DNA from: a virus
Taxonomy: Duplodnaviria; Heunggongvirae; Uroviricota; Caudoviricetes
Reading direction: 5' to 3' (one strand)
DNA: 28,075 nucleotides
IMG/VR virus record: IMGVR_UViG_2585427787_000005
Shown here: one piece after another, positions 2,523-25,466 of the stretch
Layout of the letters: each line of letters opens with the position of its first letter
How positions within the stretch are numbered: position 1 is the stretch's first letter
Notes under the pieces: generated by a model
Database searches by the model: none
Told to the model about the DNA's origin: nothing
What the model saw: only the letters and a program-made list of their open reading frames with translations
Position numbers and translations under genes: made by a program

Positions 2523-5080
2523 CGTCCACCTCCGGAGAACAGGCCACCATCACGCATCTGTGTCTGAATTTCATCACGGGCACCCTTGCGGGCCATGTCA
2601 TACACTGCCTTCATCATCTGTGGACCTGGCAGACCATTCGTACCGTCGTTCTGAATCACCACGTGATTGTTCTGATTAAAATTAATGCCTTCAGCCCGCC
2701 GCATCTGCGCCGGACTTCCGGCACCGCCCACATAACCACCTTCCGCATAGCCCCGCATCAGGCGGTACAGGTTGCCCACGCCAATCCGGCTGGTTGCCTC
2801 CTTCGTGAAGACAAACTCACCACGGTGAACAATCCCCGCTGGCTCATATTTGCCGCCGGTTCCCGTAAATCCTCCGGTCGCAAAATGGAATTTCGCCGCA
2901 GCGGCCTGAATGGCTGTACCGCCTGACGCGGATGCGCCGCCACCAACAGCCCCGCCAATGGCGCTGCCGATACTCCCGACAATCCCCACCATTGCCTGCT
3001 TAAGCAGAATTTCTGTCATCATGGACAGCACGGAACGGGTGAAGCTGCGCCAGTTCTGCTCACTGCCGGTCAGCATCGCCGCCATATTCTGCGCAATACC
3101 ATCAAAGGTCTGCGCGGCTGCACTTTTAACCTGCGACATACTGTCCGTGGCGCTCTCTTCCCACTCACACCAGCCGGACTTCAGGCCTGCCATCCAGTTC
3201 CCGCGAAGCTGGTCTTCAGCCGCCCAGGTCTTTTTCTGCTCTGACATGACGTTATTCAGCGCCAGCGGATTATCGCCATACTGTTCCTTCAGGCGCTGTT
3301 CCGTGGCTTCCCGTTCTGCCTGCCGGTCAGTCACCCCCCGGCTTTTCGCATCAATGGCGGCCCGTTTTGCCCGTTGCTGCTGTGCGAATTTATCCGCCTG
3401 CTGCGCCAGCGCGTTCAGGCGCTCCTGATACGTAACCTTGTCGCCAAGTGCAGCCAGCTGGCGTTTGTACTCCAGCGTCTCATCTTTATGCGCCAGCAGG
3501 GATTTCTCCTGTGCGGATAGCTGGCGACGTTGTGCCGCCTCCTCCAGTACCGCGAACTGATTTTCAGCCTTCCACAAATCCCGGCGCTGCTGGCTGATTT
3601 TCTCATTCGCTCCGGCATGCTTCTCCAGCGTCCGGAGTTCTGCCTGAAGCGTCAGCAGGGCAGCATGAGCACTGTCTTCCTGACGATCGCCCGCAGACAC
3701 TTTCACGCCGGACTGTTTCGGCTTTTTCAGCGTCGCTTCATAGTCCTTTTTCGCCGCCGCCATCAGCGTGTTGTAATCTGCCTGCAGAATTTTCCCGTCC
3801 TTCAGTGCCTTGTTCAGTTCTTCCTGACGGGCGGTATATTTCTCCAGCGGCGTCTGCAGGCGTTCATAAGCCTTCTGCGCCTCTTCGGTATATTTCAGCC
3901 GTGACGCTTCGGTATCGCTCTGCTGCTGCGCATTTTTGTCCTGTTGAGTCTGCTGCTCAGCCTTCTTTCGGGCGGCTTCAAGCGCAAGACGGGCCTTTTC
4001 ACGATCATCCCAGTAACGCGCCCGCGCTTCATCGTTAACAAAATAATCATCCTTGCGCAGATTCCAGATGTCGTCTGCTTTCTTAAACGCAGCCTCTGCC
4101 TTAATCAGCATCTCCTGCGCGGTATCAGGACGACCAATATCCAGCACCGCATCCCACATGGATTTGAATGCCCGTGCTGTCCTGTCTGCCCAGGTCTCCA
4201 GCGTGCCCATGTTCTCTTTCAGGCGGCGGGTCTGGTCATCAAACCCTTTCGTTGCGGCCTCGTTCGCCGCCTGCAATGCCCCGGCTTCATCGCCGGAACG
4301 CTGCAACTGAGCAACATACGCAATCTGCTCCGCCGTCACGTTATGGAACTGGCGTGCCATCGCCGTCAGCCCCGACGTCGGGTCTGTGGTCAGCTTCCCG
4401 AAGGCTTCAGCGACCTTGTCCACCTCCACGCCGGATGCAGAGGAGAAACGCGCCACACTCTGGCTGATGGACGCAATCTGAGCCTCACCGCTTACCCCCG
4501 CCTTAACCAGTGCGCTGAGTGACTCGCTGGTCTGGTTAAACGTCAGCCCTGCCGCCTGCCCGGCTCTGGACAGGGCCAGAATACGATCTGCCGTCAGTCC
4601 CGCCTGATTGCCGGAAAGGACCAGCGTTTTGTTGAAATCGGACAGGGTTGAGTTGCCCTGATACCAGGCATACGCCAGCGCACCGGTCGCCACCGCCAGC
4701 GAGGTGGCCCCCACCATCGGCAGGGTGATCGCACCGGCAAGCCCCCTGAACATGGGGATCATCCCGCCGAAGGAGTCCTTAACCTGACCCCCCTGTTGCA
4801 GCAGGATCAGCCACGGACTTTGCCCGCCTGCAAGCTGCGTGGCCACGTCGGTGAACTGTGCAGGCAGCATACGCATGGCGGCTTTATACTGCCCGACGGA
4901 AATCCCCGCTTTCTGTGCAGCCAGCGCCTGTCGGCTCAGCGACTGTTCAACGACTGCCGCTGTTTTTTTCGCATCAGTTTCCGTACCGGAAAAATGACGC
5001 CTGACTCTGGCCATCTGCTCGTCAAATCTGGCCGCATCCAGACTTAAATCAACGACCAGATCGCCTACCGGTTCAGCCAT
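2519..5080 (-). CDS. H: Tail tape-measure protein H
   Basis: 853-aa ORF MAEPVGDLVVDLSLDAARFDEQMARVRRHF, the same length as lambda gpH. Long coiled-coil middle and Gly-rich C-terminal region. Confidence 0.95.
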   Translation of the reverse strand: MAEPVGDLVVDLSLDAARFDEQMARVRRHFSGTETDAKKTAAVVEQSLSRQALAAQKAGISVGQYKAAMRMLPAQFTDVATQLAGGQSPWLILLQQGGQVKDSFGGMIPMFRGLAGAITLPMVGATSLAVATGALAYAWYQGNSTLSDFNKTLVLSGNQAGLTADRILALSRAGQAAGLTFNQTSESLSALVKAGVSGEAQIASISQSVARFSSASGVEVDKVAEAFGKLTTDPTSGLTAMARQFHNVTAEQIAYVAQLQRSGDEAGALQAANEAATKGFDDQTRRLKENMGTLETWADRTARAFKSMWDAVLDIGRPDTAQEMLIKAEAAFKKADDIWNLRKDDYFVNDEARARYWDDREKARLALEAARKKAEQQTQQDKNAQQQSDTEASRLKYTEEAQKAYERLQTPLEKYTARQEELNKALKDGKILQADYNTLMAAAKKDYEATLKKPKQSGVKVSAGDRQEDSAHAALLTLQAELRTLEKHAGANEKISQQRRDLWKAENQFAVLEEAAQRRQLSAQEKSLLAHKDETLEYKRQLAALGDKVTYQERLNALAQQADKFAQQQRAKRAAIDAKSRGVTDRQAEREATEQRLKEQYGDNPLALNNVMSEQKKTWAAEDQLRGNWMAGLKSGWCEWEESATDSMSQVKSAAAQTFDGIAQNMAAMLTGSEQNWRSFTRSVLSMMTEILLKQAMVGIVGSIGSAIGGAVGGGASASGGTAIQAAAAKFHFATGGFTGTGGKYEPAGIVHRGEFVFTKEATSRIGVGNLYRLMRGYAEGGYVGGAGSPAQMRRAEGINFNQNNHVVIQNDGTNGLPGPQMMKAVYDMARKGARDEIQTQMRDGGLFSGGGR

Positions 5081-16373: not shown

Positions 16374-16667
16374 ATGAAAAAAATGTTGTTTTCTGCCGCT
16401 CTGGCAATGCTTATTACAGGATGTGCTCAACAGACGTTTACTGTTGGAAACAAACCGACAGCAGTAACACCAAAGGAAACCATCACCCATCACTTCTTCG
16501 TTTCGGGAATTGGACAGGAGAAAACTGTTGATGCAGCCAAAATTTGTGGCGGCGCAGAAAATGTTGTTAAAACAGAAACCCAGCAAACATTCGTAAATGG
16601 ATTGCTCGGTTTTATTACTTTAGGCATTTATACTCCGCTGGAAGCGCGTGTGTATTGCTCACAATAA
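16374..16667 (+). CDS. bor: Bor lipoprotein (serum-resistance-associated outer-membrane lipoprotein)
   Basis: 97 aa from MKKMLFSAALAMLITGCAQQTFTV with lipobox LITGC, recalled lambda Bor. ATG at 16374; the longer ORF-track start is an upstream extension. Convergent with Rz as in lambda. Confidence 0.92.
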   Translation: MKKMLFSAALAMLITGCAQQTFTVGNKPTAVTPKETITHHFFVSGIGQEKTVDAAKICGGAENVVKTETQQTFVNGLLGFITLGIYTPLEARVYCSQ

Positions 16668-18458: not shown

Positions 18459-19541
18459 ATGAAAAAATTAACAGTGGCAATTTCTGCTGTAGCTGCATCA
18501 GTACTGATGGCGATGTCTGCTCAGGCAGCTGAAATTTATAATAAAGACAGTAACAAGCTGGATCTGTACGGGAAAGTTAATGCTAAGCACTACTTCTCCT
18601 CTAATGATGCAGATGATGGTGATACTACTTATGCCCGTCTTGGCTTCAAAGGTGAAACCCAAATCAACGATCAACTGACTGGTTTCGGTCAGTGGGAATA
18701 TGAATTCAAAGGCAACCGCGCTGAATCTCAAGGTTCCTCCAAAGATAAAACCCGTCTTGCCTTCGCTGGCCTGAAATTCGGTGACTACGGCTCCATCGAT
18801 TACGGCCGTAACTACGGTGTAGCATACGACATCGGTGCGTGGACTGACGTCCTGCCAGAATTCGGTGGTGACACTTGGACTCAAACAGATGTGTTCATGA
18901 CTGGTCGCACCACTGGTGTTGCAACTTATCGTAACAACGACTTCTTTGGTCTGGTTGATGGTCTGAACTTTGCTGCTCAGTATCAGGGTAAAAATGACCG
19001 CACTGACGTAACTGAAGCTAATGGTGATGGTTTCGGTTTCTCCACTACTTATGAGTATGAAGGATTCGGTGTAGGTGCAACCTATGCTAAATCTGATCGC
19101 ACTAATAATCAGGTTATCTACGGTAACAACGGTCTGAATGCTTCTGGTCAAAATGCTGAAGTATGGGCAGCTGGTCTGAAATATGATGCGAACAACATCT
19201 ATCTGGCCACCACCTATTCTGAAACCCAGAACATGACTGTTTTTGGTAATAACCATATTGCCAACAAAGCACAAAACTTCGAAGCTGTTGCACAATATCA
19301 GTTCGACTTCGGCCTGCGTCCATCCGTTGCTTACCTGCATTCTAAAGGAAAAGACTTGGGTGTTTGGGGTGATCAGGACCTGGTTGAATATGTTGATGTA
19401 GGTGCAACCTATTACTTCAACAAAAATATGTCCACTTTTGTTGACTACAAAATCAACCTGATTGATAAGAGCGATTTCACGAAAGCATCTGGCGTTGCTA
19501 CCGATGATATCGTTGCTGTAGGTATGGTTTACCAGTTCTAA
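18459..19541 (+). CDS. nmpC: Outer-membrane porin of the OmpC/NmpC/Lc family (lysogenic-conversion moron between Q and S)
   Basis: 360-aa ORF with signal peptide [23 protein letters not shown] followed by [16 protein letters not shown] and C-terminal ...VAVGMVYQF, the classic porin terminal Phe. Opposite strand to the late genes, in the position of DLP12 nmpC / PA-2 lc. Confidence 0.93.
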
Positions 19542-21148: not shown

Positions 21149-21603
21149 TACGCCTCCTGCTTGTCGCGGAGCAGCTGGAACTCGCAGCTCTGCGGAATAG
21201 TCAGGTGGCAGCCAATATTCACCGCCCAGGCTTCAACCTTACACAGGAAGATATACATCTCTCCGGTATCAAGATCGGAGGTATGGCGTAACGACTGGAT
21301 AGTGGTGATCTCACCGGTTACGACATCAACCAGGTCTTTGGTTTCATAACCGAGATATGTGTGTTTGAGAGCATCTTTTACCCAAGCTGGAGTGGCGAAC
21401 GTTTTACCCCTGCTGATGAGGTATTCACTGATTTCGCTGTACCACATGTGGCTGAGTGCATTCTGGGAAAGACTGCGTTTCTCACGCCACGGTTTAAGCA
21501 CCATGCGAAAGCATTTGCCTTCCTCCAGATAAGGCTGGATCTGCTGGCCGATAGCGGTGAAGTTACCACGATGCAATTTGATGCCGTCTTGTGGGAGGTT
21601 CAC
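21148..21603 (-). CDS. ybcN: YbcN-like nin-region protein
   Basis: 151-aa ORF (GTG start) [55 protein letters not shown] with GGAGGTG ribosome-binding site. Same order ybcN-ninE-ybcO-rusA-ylcG-Q as recalled for DLP12. Confidence 0.88.
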
Positions 21604-21636
21604 GCTTCACCTCCGCAGAGGTCAAACGCTGGATGC

Positions 21637-21721
21637 AAAAAATCGCAGGTGCATCTCTGCATCTGTGAAGGGAGAAGAGAGTTTGGATTGTATGTGCGCA
21701 TAAACGTCCCCGTTTAGCGCA
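21637..21721. repeat. 85-bp direct repeat, copy A (just upstream of ybcN)
   Basis: AAAAAATCGCAGGTGCATCTCTGCATCTGTGAAGGGAGAAGAGAGTTTGGATTGTATGTGCGCATAAACGTCCCCGTTTAGCGCA differs from copy B (23571..23655) at 5 of 85 positions. Ends in an imperfect 10-bp hairpin GCGCATAAACG-tcccc-CGTTTAGCGC. Confidence 0.9.
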
Positions 21722-21797
21722 GAAGTCACCGGAGTTGTTCAAGCTCCAATGGCATGATTATGGCTGGTTGATTATTGGAAATCAAATGTGCTGAAAA

Positions 21798-22307
21798 TTA
21801 GTCTGCCAAGTCTTCCTCAGTCGCAACTGGGTAATTCCAAATATCAAAAAAAGCTATAGCCTCCTGCCATTTGCTCCATAAGTTATCAAGTACTTGTGTA
21901 GGTTCCGTACTTTTAAAAACAGAATCAGCCGCATCACCGTTATGAACTTCCTCGTACAGTTCCATTATTAGCAGATTAACAAAGTACTGTTTCAACATTA
22001 ATGCCTGATTACCTTCTTTCTGCTGGCTATCCTGCTTGATGAGCTCCATCGCCCGTACTAGGCACCTGATGATATCCGCTGCATCATTAACGCTCCATTC
22101 AGATCCGCGCTTATCTTTAGCTGATGAATTGGCTCTCTCAGCGCAAGCCTTTAAAGACTCATAAAGGTAAACTCTATTTTGTAGCTGCAGCGCTTTTTTT
22201 GACGTGCACCAACTTGCAAGCGCCGACCCCGCTGCGGCTAATGTGCCAAACGCAGAAATGCCTGCTGCTATTGCACTTAAGTCGGCACTGTCAAAGTTCC
22301 ACATCAT
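21798..22307 (-). CDS. Hypothetical membrane-anchored protein (169 aa), function unknown
   Basis: ORF MMWNFDSADLSAIAAGISAFGTLAAAGSALASWCTSKK with one predicted N-terminal transmembrane helix followed by a charged, probably helical domain. No family recognised by eye. Confidence 0.7.
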   Translation of the reverse strand: MMWNFDSADLSAIAAGISAFGTLAAAGSALASWCTSKKALQLQNRVYLYESLKACAERANSSAKDKRGSEWSVNDAADIIRCLVRAMELIKQDSQQKEGNQALMLKQYFVNLLIMELYEEVHNGDAADSVFKSTEPTQVLDNLWSKWQEAIAFFDIWNYPVATEEDLAD

Positions 22308-22472
22308 CGTTACACCTTATATAAACACCCCTCAGTAATATCCAATAAGGTATGTGAACAATCAATATAATTTATATCCGTATCGGCACATAGCGATTTT
22401 AATGCTACTGATAATGGTATCTTTTAGATTATATCGTCCAGTTCCAGTACCCGTATTTTATGAAATGGACTC

Positions 22473-22512
22473 GCACATTACCAAAAAAAATGCCAGCACT
22501 TCCGTCATCGCA
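22473..22512 (-). terminator. Rho-independent terminator between the Bro-N-like gene and the 169-aa gene
   Basis: Minus strand reads GCCAGCA-ttctgcgatgacggaag-TGCTGGC followed by ATTTTTTTTGG. 7-bp stem at 22482..22488 and 22506..22512 with a long 17-nt loop, which weakens the call. Confidence 0.6.
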
Positions 22513-22542
22513 GAATGCTGGCAGTATTTCTAACTAGTGACT

Positions 22543-23151
22543 TTATTGCAACAGATTCTGACGGAAATATGGTAACACACGACTCCACTTATCATCCTGC
22601 CACGGTTGGAATTTTACATGCGCCGTTTCTCTGGCAAGGATTTCTCGCGCCCTGTTGAGTATCCGAGGATATTCTTGTTCGATTGAAGTGAATCTACCTG
22701 CTTCGCGATGCTCTGCGACCTGAAGAAGGGGCGTAACGTTCTGGCAGGCGGTTAACATCGTATCACTTGCTCGCCATAACCAGGCGAGTGTGCAAAGTTC
22801 GTTATCAGTGAATTGTTTTGTGATTGGGGATTGTTGAACTTCTCGATCGAGAATATCCAGAACCCAGCGGCGGAATTCTTTGGCCACAGGAGTACGAGCA
22901 AACATGGCGATCAAATGGGCTCCGCGAAGGCTAAATACTCGAGACTCCTGCATTCCACGAGGGGTGGTCACTTTGACCACCCTTGTCATCATATCTGTGA
23001 ATTCATCTGAGTGCCGAGAGTAAATGCGCTGAACTGCTTTATCGTCCGCATATTCCAGTGCTAAACCAACTTCAGTGGCAGTAAGCCAAATTCTGTTATT
23101 GTGGCAAATCGGGGTAAACGTCGTTTTGTGGAATGCTAATTGAGTAGTCAT
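22543..23151 (-). CDS. Bro-N-like domain protein (antirepressor / Roi-like family candidate)
   Basis: 202-aa ORF MTTQLAFHKTTFTPICHNNRIWLTATEVGLALEYADDKAVQRIYSRHSDEF...RVFSLRGAHLIAMFARTPVAKEFRRWVLDIL. Matches the recalled Bro-N consensus pattern (W-x-x-A-x-[DE]-V-x-x-x-L, then S-E-x-G-[LV]-Y-x-L-I, then A-x-x-F-x-x-W-V). Family assignment is by eye. Confidence 0.65.
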   Translation of the reverse strand: MTTQLAFHKTTFTPICHNNRIWLTATEVGLALEYADDKAVQRIYSRHSDEFTDMMTRVVKVTTPRGMQESRVFSLRGAHLIAMFARTPVAKEFRRWVLDILDREVQQSPITKQFTDNELCTLAWLWRASDTMLTACQNVTPLLQVAEHREAGRFTSIEQEYPRILNRAREILARETAHVKFQPWQDDKWSRVLPYFRQNLLQ

Positions 23152-23414
23152 AGTATCACCTCATCAGGTTAACCATCACCACCAACGACGCCAATCGACT
23201 GGTGGTGAACTGTGTAAGGTTGGCGTAACCGGCTACTCAAACCCGGCGCTTCCGAAGAAGCCCTCACACAGCCCACCATAATTTGGGCATAGCCGTGCTT
23301 AGCGCACAAAAAAACCGCTTAACGCGGTATGCGTTGAGTAGTATCCCGGGACGCCAATCCCGTGTGCCGATTTTGCGGCAACGCACAGAATATAGCGCCG
23401 GATAAATCATGTCG

Positions 23415-23504
23415 TCAACCCCAGTAAATGGACACCATGATGATCACAGCCATAGCTGCTACAACAGTTACAACTACCTCAGGCCAAAACATAACGATTT
23501 CCAT
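23415..23504 (-). CDS. Candidate small hydrophobic peptide (29 aa; alternative 25-aa start at 23492)
   Basis: Minus-strand ORF ATG GAA ATC GTT ATG TTT TGG... gives MEIVMFWPEVVVTVVAAMAVIIMVSIYWG, a single transmembrane-like helix. AAGGTGA lies just upstream. Immediately downstream of repeat copy B. Below the ORF-track cutoff. Confidence 0.3.
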   Translation of the reverse strand: MEIVMFWPEVVVTVVAAMAVIIMVSIYWG

Positions 23505-23570
23505 ATCACCTTTAGCCGCCAGACGAATAGAGACTCCCAATTCTGGCTGTCGAAGTAAAACACCGAATGT

Positions 23571-23655
23571 AAAAAATCGTAGGTGCATTTCTGCATCTGT
23601 GAATGGAGATGAGAGTTTGGATTGTGTGTGCGCATAAACGTCCCCGTTTAGCGCA
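23571..23655. repeat. 85-bp direct repeat, copy B
   Basis: AAAAAATCGTAGGTGCATTTCTGCATCTGTGAATGGAGATGAGAGTTTGGATTGTGTGTGCGCATAAACGTCCCCGTTTAGCGCA. See copy A. Confidence 0.9.
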
Positions 23656-23963
23656 ACCCCACCACCGGGTGTTCAGGCCGACAGTAACTATATTATTCCC
23701 TACTGATTTTTGAAAATCAAAGGTCTTTATACGTCACACGAGAGCAAATATTTCCGAAGAAGAAACCTTTCGCCTTGAAAGGATAAAGAGTTCATTTCAT
23801 AAATTGAAATATTCAATAAGAATATTGCAAAAAATGAAATTATTTACTAGCGAGTCTATCTAACTGATAATTATGAAGATTGTAAGCGGTAGCAATCACC
23901 CGCATACACATTGAACAGGATTTAATACAAAACGTCTTAAATTGTCCGTAAGGAATAGCACGA

Positions 23964-25466
23964 ATGACTCAAACTCCTCTATTACTTGCAATCATATTTT
24001 TATTGGTTGTTCTTGTTCTTTATATAGCTGCAATCAAACGCATCAAAAAAATACAATTAGAATTAAGTGATAGCAATCAAAAAAATGAAGAATACAAATC
24101 TCGCTTTGCAGATTATTTTAATGTAGAAGAAGAATGTAAGAAGCTTATTGAGAAAACAGAGCAAGAATGCTCCATAATAAAAGAAGAATCCCTAAAAGTA
24201 AAAGAAAATGCCAATAATGAACTAACAAACACCATTGAAAAAATGGATGGTATCAATAAACAAATCCAAGAGCTAAGAAGAACTTATAAAGAGAAGAAAG
24301 AAATATATGATAAACTAGTAAGGCAAATTTCTATTTATTCAGAAGATGTTGAGCTAGCCGAACTAGGATTTTACGAACCTCATTTTAATTTTGAAGATTC
24401 AGAGCAATTTAAAAACAAAATAAAATCCATCAGGGATGAACAGAAATTAATGCTGCGGGATAAAACCCACTCTGGCGCAGTATATTGTACAACCCAATGG
24501 ACTGTTGAAGGCTCTCGAGCAGAGGGTAAAAAAATGACAGACAGAAATATCAGGCTAACTACTAGAGCATTTAATAATGAATGTGATGCTGCAATTAGCA
24601 ATTGCACGTGGAAAAACATCACTAAAATGGAAGAACGCATCACAAAGGCATTTGAGGCCATAAATAAACTAAACGAGCAAAATCACATATATATAAACAC
24701 TAAATACCTCAATAAAAAACTTGAGGAATTGTGGCTTACCCATGAATATCGTGAGCAAAAACAGAAAGAAAAAGAAGAACAGGCAGAAATAAGGGCACAA
24801 ATGAGAGAGGAGGAGCGTGCACAACGAGAAATAGAAAAGGCCATGCAAGACGCAGAGGCAGAAGAGCGCCGTTATAAAAAAGCAATTGAAGCTGCAAGAA
24901 AGGAAATGGAAAAAGTTACTGGTGACATGAAGCAGCGCCTCGAAAATCGCATTGCCGAACTAGAACAGAGTTTGTCGCAGGCTGAATCAAAGCATCAAAG
25001 AGCATTATCCATGGCACAACAAACCAAACAAGGTCATGTTTATATTATTTCGAACATAGGTTCTTTTGGGGAGAATGTTTATAAAATAGGCATGACACGA
25101 CGTCTTGATCCGCAAGACCGTGTAAATGAGCTCGGTGATGCATCTGTTCCTTTTATTTTTGATGTACATGCCATGATTTATTCGGAGGACGCTCCATCAT
25201 TAGAAAAAAAACTACATGATGTCTTCGATAAAAAGAGAGTCAATCTTGTAAATCGTAGAAAAGAGTTTTTCTATGTTACTCTGGATGAGATCAAAGAAGC
25301 TGTTAAAAAACACTCTGATTCAGAAATTGAATTTATTGAGACAGCAGTCGCAAAAGACTTTAATGAGTCATTGGCTATTCGTAATCATGAAAATAAAAAA
25401 AGTGACAACAGCAACTCATCAATTATACCTGAGCGAAAAACCCCAGAGTTTGCAGATGCAATTTAA
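23964..25466 (+). CDS. AT-rich cargo protein (500 aa): N-terminal transmembrane anchor, coiled-coil segments, central DUF4041-like region and C-terminal GIY-YIG-like (T5orf172-type) putative nuclease domain
   Basis: ORF MTQTPLLLAIIFLLVVLVLYIAAIKRIKK (transmembrane helix). Lys/Glu-rich coiled coils (e.g. EYREQKQKEKEEQAEIRAQMREEERAQREIEKAM). C-terminal GHVYIISNIGSFGENVYKIGMTRRLDPQDRVNELGDASVPFIFDVHAMIYSEDAPSLEKKLH has GIY-YIG-like spacing (VYI...10 aa...YKIG, then Arg, then Glu). Composition is visibly AT-rich against the flanking phage DNA, and the gene is on the opposite strand. Domain names are from recall. Confidence 0.85.
   Translation: MTQTPLLLAIIFLLVVLVLYIAAIKRIKKIQLELSDSNQKNEEYKSRFADYFNVEEECKKLIEKTEQECSIIKEESLKVKENANNELTNTIEKMDGINKQIQELRRTYKEKKEIYDKLVRQISIYSEDVELAELGFYEPHFNFEDSEQFKNKIKSIRDEQKLMLRDKTHSGAVYCTTQWTVEGSRAEGKKMTDRNIRLTTRAFNNECDAAISNCTWKNITKMEERITKAFEAINKLNEQNHIYINTKYLNKKLEELWLTHEYREQKQKEKEEQAEIRAQMREEERAQREIEKAMQDAEAEERRYKKAIEAARKEMEKVTGDMKQRLENRIAELEQSLSQAESKHQRALSMAQQTKQGHVYIISNIGSFGENVYKIGMTRRLDPQDRVNELGDASVPFIFDVHAMIYSEDAPSLEKKLHDVFDKKRVNLVNRRKEFFYVTLDEIKEAVKKHSDSEIEFIETAVAKDFNESLAIRNHENKKSDNSNSSIIPERKTPEFADAI

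Follow-up and report, generated by a model that had tools for sequence, protein, structure and literature searches.

The stretch of DNA analyzed here (the window) is the 28,075-nucleotide (nt) IMG/VR virus record IMGVR_UViG_2585427787_000005, which is an Escherichia coli lambdoid prophage of the DLP12/phage-82 type. Two minus-strand genes in it are the subject of this report: an open reading frame (ORF) of 202 amino acids (aa) at 22543..23151 and a 169-aa ORF at 21798..22307. Both exist as called in an earlier note, made from the sequence alone, which described them as one two-gene unit with its own terminator, composed of a Bro-N-like protein and a membrane-anchored protein. Region 21600..23700 (2.1 kb compared), which holds both genes, is 100% identical to phage PhiR26_1 (PV340555), and the identical stretch is also found in prophages of more than 100 complete E. 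coli genomes.

In the annotated records, O, P and ren are followed by a plus-strand 500-aa gene (SNIPE, described below), the 202-aa and 169-aa genes, the series ylcH-ybcN(ninB)-ninE-ybcO-rusA-ylcG-Q, and the lysis and structural genes. All early-right genes are on the minus strand in these records. The two genes under study occupy a cargo slot bounded by ren and ninB.

The 202-aa protein and its RNA leader

The 202-aa protein matches two Pfam domains: Bro-N (PF02498) at residues 17-100 (E 4.4e-10, 40.5 bits vs a cutoff of 25.6) and P22_AR_C (PF10548) at residues 110-180 (E 1.7e-17, 63.7 bits vs 22.4). The Bro-N pattern noticed earlier clears the curated Pfam threshold; the C-terminal P22_AR_C domain had been overlooked. 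The antirepressor Ant of phage P22 consists of P22_AR_N and P22_AR_C in Pfam, and BLASTP aligned it with the 202-aa protein across 97 residues (E 7e-6). The best annotated PHROG matches are named "anti-repressor Ant", and phage records label the protein "Rha protein". Homologues with Bro-N and P22AR_C domains are found in ant slots of other phages: behind a C4 RNA in Aaphi23, after Arc and with a sar RNA in Salmonella phage SPN3UB, and after Arc-family genes in a Klebsiella phage, where no RNA match reached the gathering score. By Pfam, PHROG and these ant-slot homologues, the antirepressor or lysogeny-control class suggested for this protein by the earlier note was right, and we refer to its gene as ant.

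The coordinates previously given for this gene leave out a 270-nt RNA leader. We scanned the 270 nt upstream of ant (23152..23420, minus strand) with Rfam covariance models. At the far end lies a putative sigma-70-like promoter, TTGACG-18-TATATT (23389..23418, minus strand, 10/12 matches), with a predicted start at ~23382. Just past it, at 23380, begins a match to the small RNA (sRNA) IsrK (23308..23380, minus strand; RF01394, 58.7 bits vs a gathering score of 50, model positions 1-77), whose 3' end is a terminator hairpin followed by U7 (23328..23308). A match to the c4-a1b1 motif (23343..23395, minus strand; RF03163, 39.6 bits) overlaps IsrK. Further downstream is a full-length match to a C4-type antisense RNA (23198..23283, minus strand; RF01695, 74.8 bits vs a gathering score of 45). 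C4 is overlapped by a candidate 36-codon leader ORF (23169..23279, minus strand), which stops 18 nt before the ant ATG and takes the position of orf45 in Gifsy-1 and orf34 in VT2-Sakai. The ant start is located 157 nt downstream of IsrK.

A search for exact complements revealed how these elements may be connected. Two exposed segments of C4, a' and b', correspond to the hairpin-2 loop TTGAGTAG (23240..23233, 8 nt) and the unpaired junction ACGCCAA (23226..23220, 7 nt). Each has two exact complements in the leader, one in IsrK and one close to the ant start. Segment a' is complementary to CTACTCAA, which occurs as a1 in IsrK (23341..23334) and as a2 at 23147..23140, where it forms ant codons 2-4. 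Segment b' is complementary to TTGGCGT, which occurs as b1 in IsrK (23357..23351) and as b2 right after C4 (23194..23188), inside GATTGGCGTC (23196..23187). Sites a2 and b2 flank the Shine-Dalgarno sequence GAGGTG (23162..23157) and the ATG (23151), and together these elements make up a C4 target region at 23140..23196 on the minus strand. The target sites are 9-10-nt repeats of the IsrK sites, and the b repeat is also present in the leaders of VT2-Sakai and SW-37. Whole-molecule duplex energies of IsrK with C4, compared with shuffles, were uninformative.

The IsrK-C4 leader is likewise found upstream of a 96%-identical ant in phage IdasGreatGrand, and a leader with 72% DNA identity is present in more than 200 Shiga toxin (Stx) and lambdoid phages. 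The VT2-Sakai leader clears all three Rfam thresholds (c4-a1b1 at 50.5 bits) and precedes orf34 and an annotated ant with ORF6N and P22AR_C domains. As far as sequence can tell, the Bro-N gene has its true partners in the IsrK and C4 RNAs encoded upstream of it. We conclude that the 202-aa gene is a predicted antirepressor of an immI-like, IsrK/C4-gated operon, because of the leader RNAs, the P22_AR_C domain in common with P22 Ant, and the homologues in ant slots.

Antirepressors with unrelated N-termini begin with the same four residues, MTTQ: the Bro-N protein of the window (23140..23151), the ORF6N protein of VT2-Sakai and the Gifsy-type protein of SW-37 (ant starts of loci L073 and L074). 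Since codons 2-4 coincide with the C4 target a2, the regulatory chassis appears to extend into the first four ant codons, which would explain the shared start and place the recombination joint just past it.

The terminator between the genes

An intrinsic terminator (22483..22523, minus strand) follows the ant stop codon by 20 nt. It consists of a stem of ~13 pairs, formed by TGCCAGCA and TGCTGGCA with inner pairs, and a run of 8 T (8 U in the RNA); its folding energy is -23.2 kcal/mol (z -2.3). The rho-independent terminator reported earlier after the 202-aa gene is real, and direct reading places it at 22523..22483, ~10 nt off the 22473..22512 given then. For comparison with other loci we surveyed 49 IMG/VR loci bearing the 169-aa gene together with metagenomic and genome loci; alleles at least 95% identical are called E. 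coli-type. The terminator is 92-100% conserved in E. coli-type loci that have the P22AR_C 3' end, and in loci of the type seen in E. coli 55989 only 26/40 nt align.

From the predicted start (~23382) to the end of the U tract (22483), the transcript would span ~900 nt. Because ant is the last gene of this ~900-nt IsrK/C4 module, the terminator closes the antirepressor operon and separates ant from the 169-aa gene. It is located between the two genes and not behind both, and the description of a two-gene unit with its own terminator does not fit the locus. No convincing terminator was found after the 169-aa gene.

With Rfam, no isrJ-like 3' sRNA was found at the ant terminator, and there was no isrJ match anywhere in the window. 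Such matches occur just downstream of the Q antiterminator genes in diverged prophages (L007 8567..8643; L008 and L009 7784..7854) and at the 3' end of the Gifsy-type antirepressor gene in SW-37 (L074 3358..3432).

The 169-aa gene and its product

The first ATG of the 169-aa ORF reads ATA in some alleles, and the true start is therefore probably the second ATG, at 22304, which would give a protein of 168 aa. About 30 nt upstream of the start is a promoter-like element (22337..22365, minus strand) with the -35 hexamer TTGATT (22365..22360), a 17-nt spacer and the -10 hexamer GATATT (22342..22337). TTG and GATATTA are invariant in 7/7 aligned lineages, in which the proteins are 50-79% identical to that of the window and the flanking DNA cannot be aligned; lineage L059 is without the TTG-17-GATATT element. 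An imperfect inverted repeat (22330..22352, minus strand) surrounds the -10 hexamer; it reads ATACCCT ... AGGGTAT in most homologues and is weaker in the window. In the alignment (A4, columns 21-52), 82% of the repeat is paired vs 40-53% in slid controls, with no significant covariation, so that an RNA hairpin and an operator look alike by this measure; the repeat could be either.

The gene evolves under purifying selection, with a ratio of nonsynonymous to synonymous substitution rates (dN/dS) of ~0.1 against homologues at 69-74% identity. Within E. coli, 14/18 polymorphic codons change the amino acid, small numbers that are compatible with relaxed or diversifying recent evolution.

The product is a predicted membrane-anchored orphan with a small-residue transmembrane helix at residues ~10-34, an acidic helical domain and the C-terminal tail TEEDLAD. 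It matches phrog_1779, a family of unknown function, from end to end (E 1.7e-102). The single predicted N-terminal membrane helix noticed earlier is conserved; it comprises ~20 residues and is rich in Ala, Gly and Ser. The Kyte-Doolittle maximum over 19 residues is 1.59 in the window allele and 1.6-2.27 in homologues, where the helix is clearly hydrophobic. Acidic residues precede it (D6 and D9) and basic residues follow it (K37, K38 and R45); the predicted topology is therefore N-out, C-in. The protein would thus be a single-pass inner-membrane protein, with the acidic domain and the tail in the cytoplasm. One homologue is fused to extra N-terminal transmembrane segments. Other conserved features are an N-terminal W, an A-x-R-A-N motif and several invariant aromatic residues, and the protein has no catalytic motif. 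An AF2 (AlphaFold2) model has a mean predicted local distance difference test score (pLDDT) of 70.7, ~85 at residues 40-155, and depicts an all-helical bundle on a long N-terminal helix. Most members of the family end in a tail of the form (T/S)-D-x-D-L-x-D, which is TEEDLAD (21798..21821) in the window protein. This acidic tail looks like a short docking motif. Its seven residues are also the most conserved stretch of the family and have low confidence in the AF2 model.

The earlier statement that this protein belongs to no recognisable family agrees with our searches. It had no Pfam, NCBIfam or PADLOC match, a Pfam search with 25 family members returned scattered chance matches only, with neither SieB nor any other family, and a sequence-profile search against PDB was empty. 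Foldseek of the model against BFVD gave nothing at E below 0.1 and no informative fold match. Homology to SieA of P22 was considered and rejected (hhalign probability 0.1). In the literature we found no mention of the accessions of these proteins or of phrog_1779. The family is small, with 14 clusters among 5.8 billion proteins and 34 representatives among 1.84 billion; among 185,579 GTDB species representatives, one genome, from Scandinavium, carries the gene.

Occurrence of the two genes at other loci

Among 5,426 E. coli genomes, 181 have the 169-aa gene, 135 the full 202-aa gene and 112 the whole block. Leaving aside one truncated copy, E. coli-type alleles of the 169-aa gene are found in three settings, in which the gene follows the complete IsrK-C4-ant operon; a variant ant whose Bro-N half differs and which has no C4; or, in 55989-type DLP12 prophages, a 107-aa remnant that contains P22AR_C only and is cut off by ybcK. 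The three settings have in common only the 3' half of ant and the terminator, which argues for linkage by descent.

Outside this group the linkage is not conserved. The ~14 loci with 50-79% identical homologues all lack Bro-N and P22AR_C genes within 4 kb. These loci belong to other lambdoid prophages, in which the homologue is located just upstream of ninB or DUF1367 and is itself preceded by DUF551 or various unknown proteins; no neighbour or defence gene recurred consistently beside the diverged homologues. Three contexts of distant homologues (18-23% identity), namely after N in the pL operon, beside a pyocin S gene and in a prophage remnant, also have no Bro-N or P22AR_C gene nearby. Conversely, in IdasGreatGrand the place of the 169-aa gene behind the 96%-identical ant is taken by a 118-aa ORF unrelated to it; homology to the window breaks in the last ant codons and resumes ~20 nt past the 169-aa stop.

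The two genes are therefore neither joined by a shared promoter with no terminator between them nor found together across the diverged homologues. The intervening terminator, the separate promoter-like motif, the homologues without Bro-N or P22AR_C, the exchange in IdasGreatGrand and the truncated ant of 55989-type prophages all speak against the functional pair proposed earlier. On this evidence, the 169-aa gene appears to be an independent orphan cargo gene and not a partner of ant.

The truncated architecture can be seen in E. coli 55989 and STEC388 (L010 and L011, 4245..4569), where the order is ren, emrE, ybcK, the 107-aa remnant (which in 55989 is a pseudogene), the terminator and an intact copy of the 169-aa gene. 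Where the RNA leader and the Bro-N half would be expected, there is instead the recombinase gene ybcK. In IMGVR_UViG_2698536535_000002 (L026), the same architecture accompanies a 99% allele of the 169-aa gene.

Proposed organization of the locus

We consider it probable that the ren-ninB cargo slot contains two adjacent modules that are independent of each other, an IsrK/C4-gated antirepressor operon and a stand-alone gene for a membrane protein. In the first, immI-like module (~23420..22483, minus strand), the promoter would drive IsrK, whose terminator would leak. The read-through transcript would carry the C4-type antisense RNA, the short leader ORF and ant. Segments a' and b' of C4 would pair in vivo with a2 and b2 around the ant Shine-Dalgarno sequence and start, leaving ant untranslated. 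Free IsrK, with its decoy sites a1 and b1, would compete with them for C4, so that translation of ant is turned on. The Bro-N and P22AR_C protein would then bind and inactivate a CI-type repressor, either that of its own prophage or that of a co-resident one, and lead to induction; the terminator at 22523..22483 would end the module. The second module (~22365..21798) would have its own sigma-70-like promoter and produce a single-pass inner-membrane protein that acts without the antirepressor.

Several observations weigh against this proposal. In the leader, c4-a1b1 scores under its gathering score (39.6 vs 46.7), the whole-molecule duplex energy of C4 with the leader is no better than that of shuffles, with only the short exact sites standing out, and the leader ORF lacks the ATGA coupling found in Gifsy-1 and VT2-Sakai. 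In the second module, TTGATT-17-GATATT scores 8/12 and was not called by a promoter scan, the helix of the window allele is borderline in hydrophobicity at 1.59, and no PADLOC, Pfam, PDB or BFVD match ties the protein to exclusion or defence. In addition, the P22AR_C 3' half and the terminator precede the 169-aa gene in every E. coli-type allele but one, the truncated copy L063, and this linkage leaves room for some function shared by the two genes.

For the 169-aa protein, the role that we would tentatively place first is a membrane-located accessory one, such as superinfection exclusion or host modulation, because the gene has its own promoter-like motif, is rare, can be replaced and is located in a cargo slot. 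A more specific idea, which we regard as rather improbable, is that the protein is the founding member of a new and very small family of inner-membrane-anchored, single-gene factors for phage exclusion or defence, carried as self-promoted cargo in early operons of lambdoid prophages, in which the TDEDLxD tail would serve as a docking site or decoy for a component of an incoming phage or for a host factor. Another reading to be reckoned with, though less likely than not, is that the protein serves an early lytic function rather than an accessory or exclusion role in the lysogen. It would then be expressed mainly by N-antiterminated read-through of the early operons and might tether a replication, recombination or host factor to the membrane. 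The gene is always co-oriented with early operons, being located between replication genes and ninB or DUF1367 in the right operon or after N in the left; no terminator was seen upstream of it at diverged loci; and the strong purifying selection and the resemblance of its acidic tail to a protein-docking motif would suit such a function. However, the gene is very rare and patchy by the counts given above (181/5,426 E. coli genomes, 14 clusters, 34 representatives), unrelated cargo can replace it at the same site, it has its own promoter-like element, and the ren-ninB slot elsewhere also houses SNIPE, emrE or an esterase gene.

The 202-aa protein could instead be a sequence-specific DNA-binding regulator, similar to Roi or Rha, that acts on DNA directly and not by binding a repressor as an antirepressor does. 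The general view of Bro-N as a DNA-binding module and the "Rha protein" annotation both point this way. We nevertheless find this unlikely: the C-terminal domain is that of P22 Ant, the best annotated PHROG matches are antirepressors, homologues take precisely the place of ant in Arc/sar-type and C4-type immI modules, and the IsrK/C4 leader governs antirepressors in Gifsy-1, as C4 does in P1/P7. Finally, we regard as very unlikely the view that regulator and membrane protein work together in a single system serving exclusion, toxin-like arrest or lysogeny control, with the regulator controlling or partnering the effector. In its favour, the genes share a strand and are separated by 235 nt, E. 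coli-type alleles adjoin a P22AR_C segment with one exception, ~112/181 E. coli genomes with the 169-aa gene have the whole block, and P22 has a similar layout in which immI lies beside the membrane exclusion gene sieA. Against it, a terminator separates the genes, the promoter-like motif of the 169-aa gene is conserved even at loci with no Bro gene, either gene occurs without an intact copy of the other (ant in IdasGreatGrand, the 169-aa gene behind a decapitated ant or away from any Bro or P22AR_C gene in 50-79% and distant homologues), and sieA is itself a separate transcription unit whose product is not homologous to the 169-aa protein.

In the proposed organization of two modules, the terminator closes off an RNA-gated antirepressor operon and does not lie inside a two-gene system, which corrects the earlier grouping. 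The Bro-N gene is a further case of a well-known kind, the antisense-RNA-gated antirepressor, and the IsrK/C4 chassis of Gifsy-1, P1 and Stx phages would also drive a Bro-N-type antirepressor in common E. coli prophages of the DLP12/phage-82-like type. Antirepressors let one prophage sense or trigger the induction of another; therefore, the module may have a bearing on cross-talk between prophages in its sequenced E. coli carriers, which number more than 100 and include strains that also carry SNIPE. The 169-aa gene is a clean stand-alone candidate, with no sign so far of a remarkable activity.

Comparison with known systems

The closest counterpart of the first module is isrK-orf45-anrP-isrJ in the Salmonella prophage Gifsy-1, in which transcription past the IsrK terminator yields a ~910-nt mRNA that stays translationally silent until IsrK opens it in trans, allowing synthesis of the antirepressor AnrP and induction of the prophage (Hershko-Shalev et al. 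2016, PMC4825925). In both modules, a promoter is followed by IsrK and its leaky terminator, then by a short ORF that overlaps a C4-like segment, and last by the gene of a ~200-aa antirepressor and a terminator. Their lengths are similar (~900 nt here vs ~910 nt), IsrK is complementary to the downstream leader in each, and the antirepressors start with MTTQ. Past MTTQ, the Gifsy-type antirepressor (read in the related phage SW-37) differs and is not orthologous. Unlike Gifsy-1, the window has a plain 3' terminator with no isrJ match, its leader ORF stops before ant without overlap, and the module is located upstream of ninB rather than downstream of Q.

The same C4 antisense logic controls the antirepressor in immI (c4-icd-ant) of phages P1 and P7. 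There, as here, C4 and its target are on one transcript, with a1 and b1 upstream and a2 and b2 at the target start, and an antirepressor is regulated. In contrast to P1 and P7, the window has no icd-like gene and its sites bracket the ant start itself; its Ant is composed of Bro-N and P22AR_C and is not P1 Ant1/2, and the host element is a lambdoid prophage.

The immI region of P22 (mnt-arc-sar-ant) shares the P22_AR_C domain, and homologues with Bro-N and P22AR_C replace Ant in Arc/sar-type modules. However, P22 uses Mnt, Arc and sar where the window has IsrK and C4, and the N-terminal domain here is Bro-N and not P22_AR_N. A separately transcribed membrane protein of ~165 aa, SieA, also adjoins P22 immI; the 169-aa protein differs from it in being non-homologous and in having one predicted membrane helix.

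In VT2-Sakai, the order is ninE-leader-orf34-ant-roi. Its isrK/c4-a1b1/C4 leader is homologous to that of the window (~72% DNA identity), and the two modules also agree in the P22_AR_C domain, the nin region and the MTTQ start. They differ in the N-terminal domain of Ant, ORF6N in VT2-Sakai and Bro-N here, and in position: after ninE and followed by roi in the former, before ninB and followed by the 169-aa gene in the latter.

The second module can be compared with SNIPE, a membrane-bound GIY-YIG nuclease that cleaves phage DNA during injection (PMC13190303). Both are cargo of the same ren-ninB region, and the 169-aa protein shares with SNIPE a predicted N-out single anchor and a cytoplasmic domain. 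SNIPE (DUF4041 and GIY-YIG) has no sequence or domain similarity to the 169-aa protein, and most of the sampled loci with the 169-aa gene are without it.

The surrounding cargo region

In the window, SNIPE is the 500-aa gene at 23964..25466 (plus strand), between ren and the block with ant and the 169-aa gene; it was identified as PD-lambda-1 by PADLOC (E 1.9e-198), a system since renamed SNIPE. It is present in 12/49 IMG/VR loci bearing the 169-aa gene. In K-12 DLP12, the same cargo slot contains ybcL/ybcM.

The whole block of ant and the 169-aa gene is enclosed by a 104-nt direct repeat. The upstream copy, D1' (23552..23655), forms the left edge of the block and is a partial duplicate of the ylcH 5' region; it duplicates the first ~23 codons of ylcH and is divergent beyond. 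The downstream copy, D1 (21618..21721), overlaps ylcH (33 aa, 21600..21701), which ends on the ybcN/ninB start. The copies are 89% identical at a spacing of 1934. The same repeat pair also encloses the equivalent block in IdasGreatGrand (L004 2525..2632 and 4528..4635), and a D1-like pair was sought and found to be absent in phage 4A7 and in the 55989-type prophage of E. coli 55989; the repeat pair is therefore specific to the ant-bearing block. This pattern is in keeping with a block that was acquired through recombination in the ylcH region and then underwent cassette exchange 3' of ant.

Directly after the 169-aa stop and upstream of ylcH-ninB is a further promoter-like site, TTGATT-17-CATAAT (21757..21785, minus strand). 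It is kept in the diverged loci L007 and L008 and in IdasGreatGrand, and in the phage 82 record X92588 the part that matches this region bears the annotations "-10 signal" and "possible regulator-binding site". Farther downstream, the annotation of PhiR26_1 and NZ_CP116913 includes an OmpC/OmpD-type porin gene between Q and the lysis genes (18459..19541, plus strand) and a Bor/Iss lipoprotein gene after the lysis genes (~16374..16667, plus strand), two more plus-strand cargo genes amid minus-strand phage genes.

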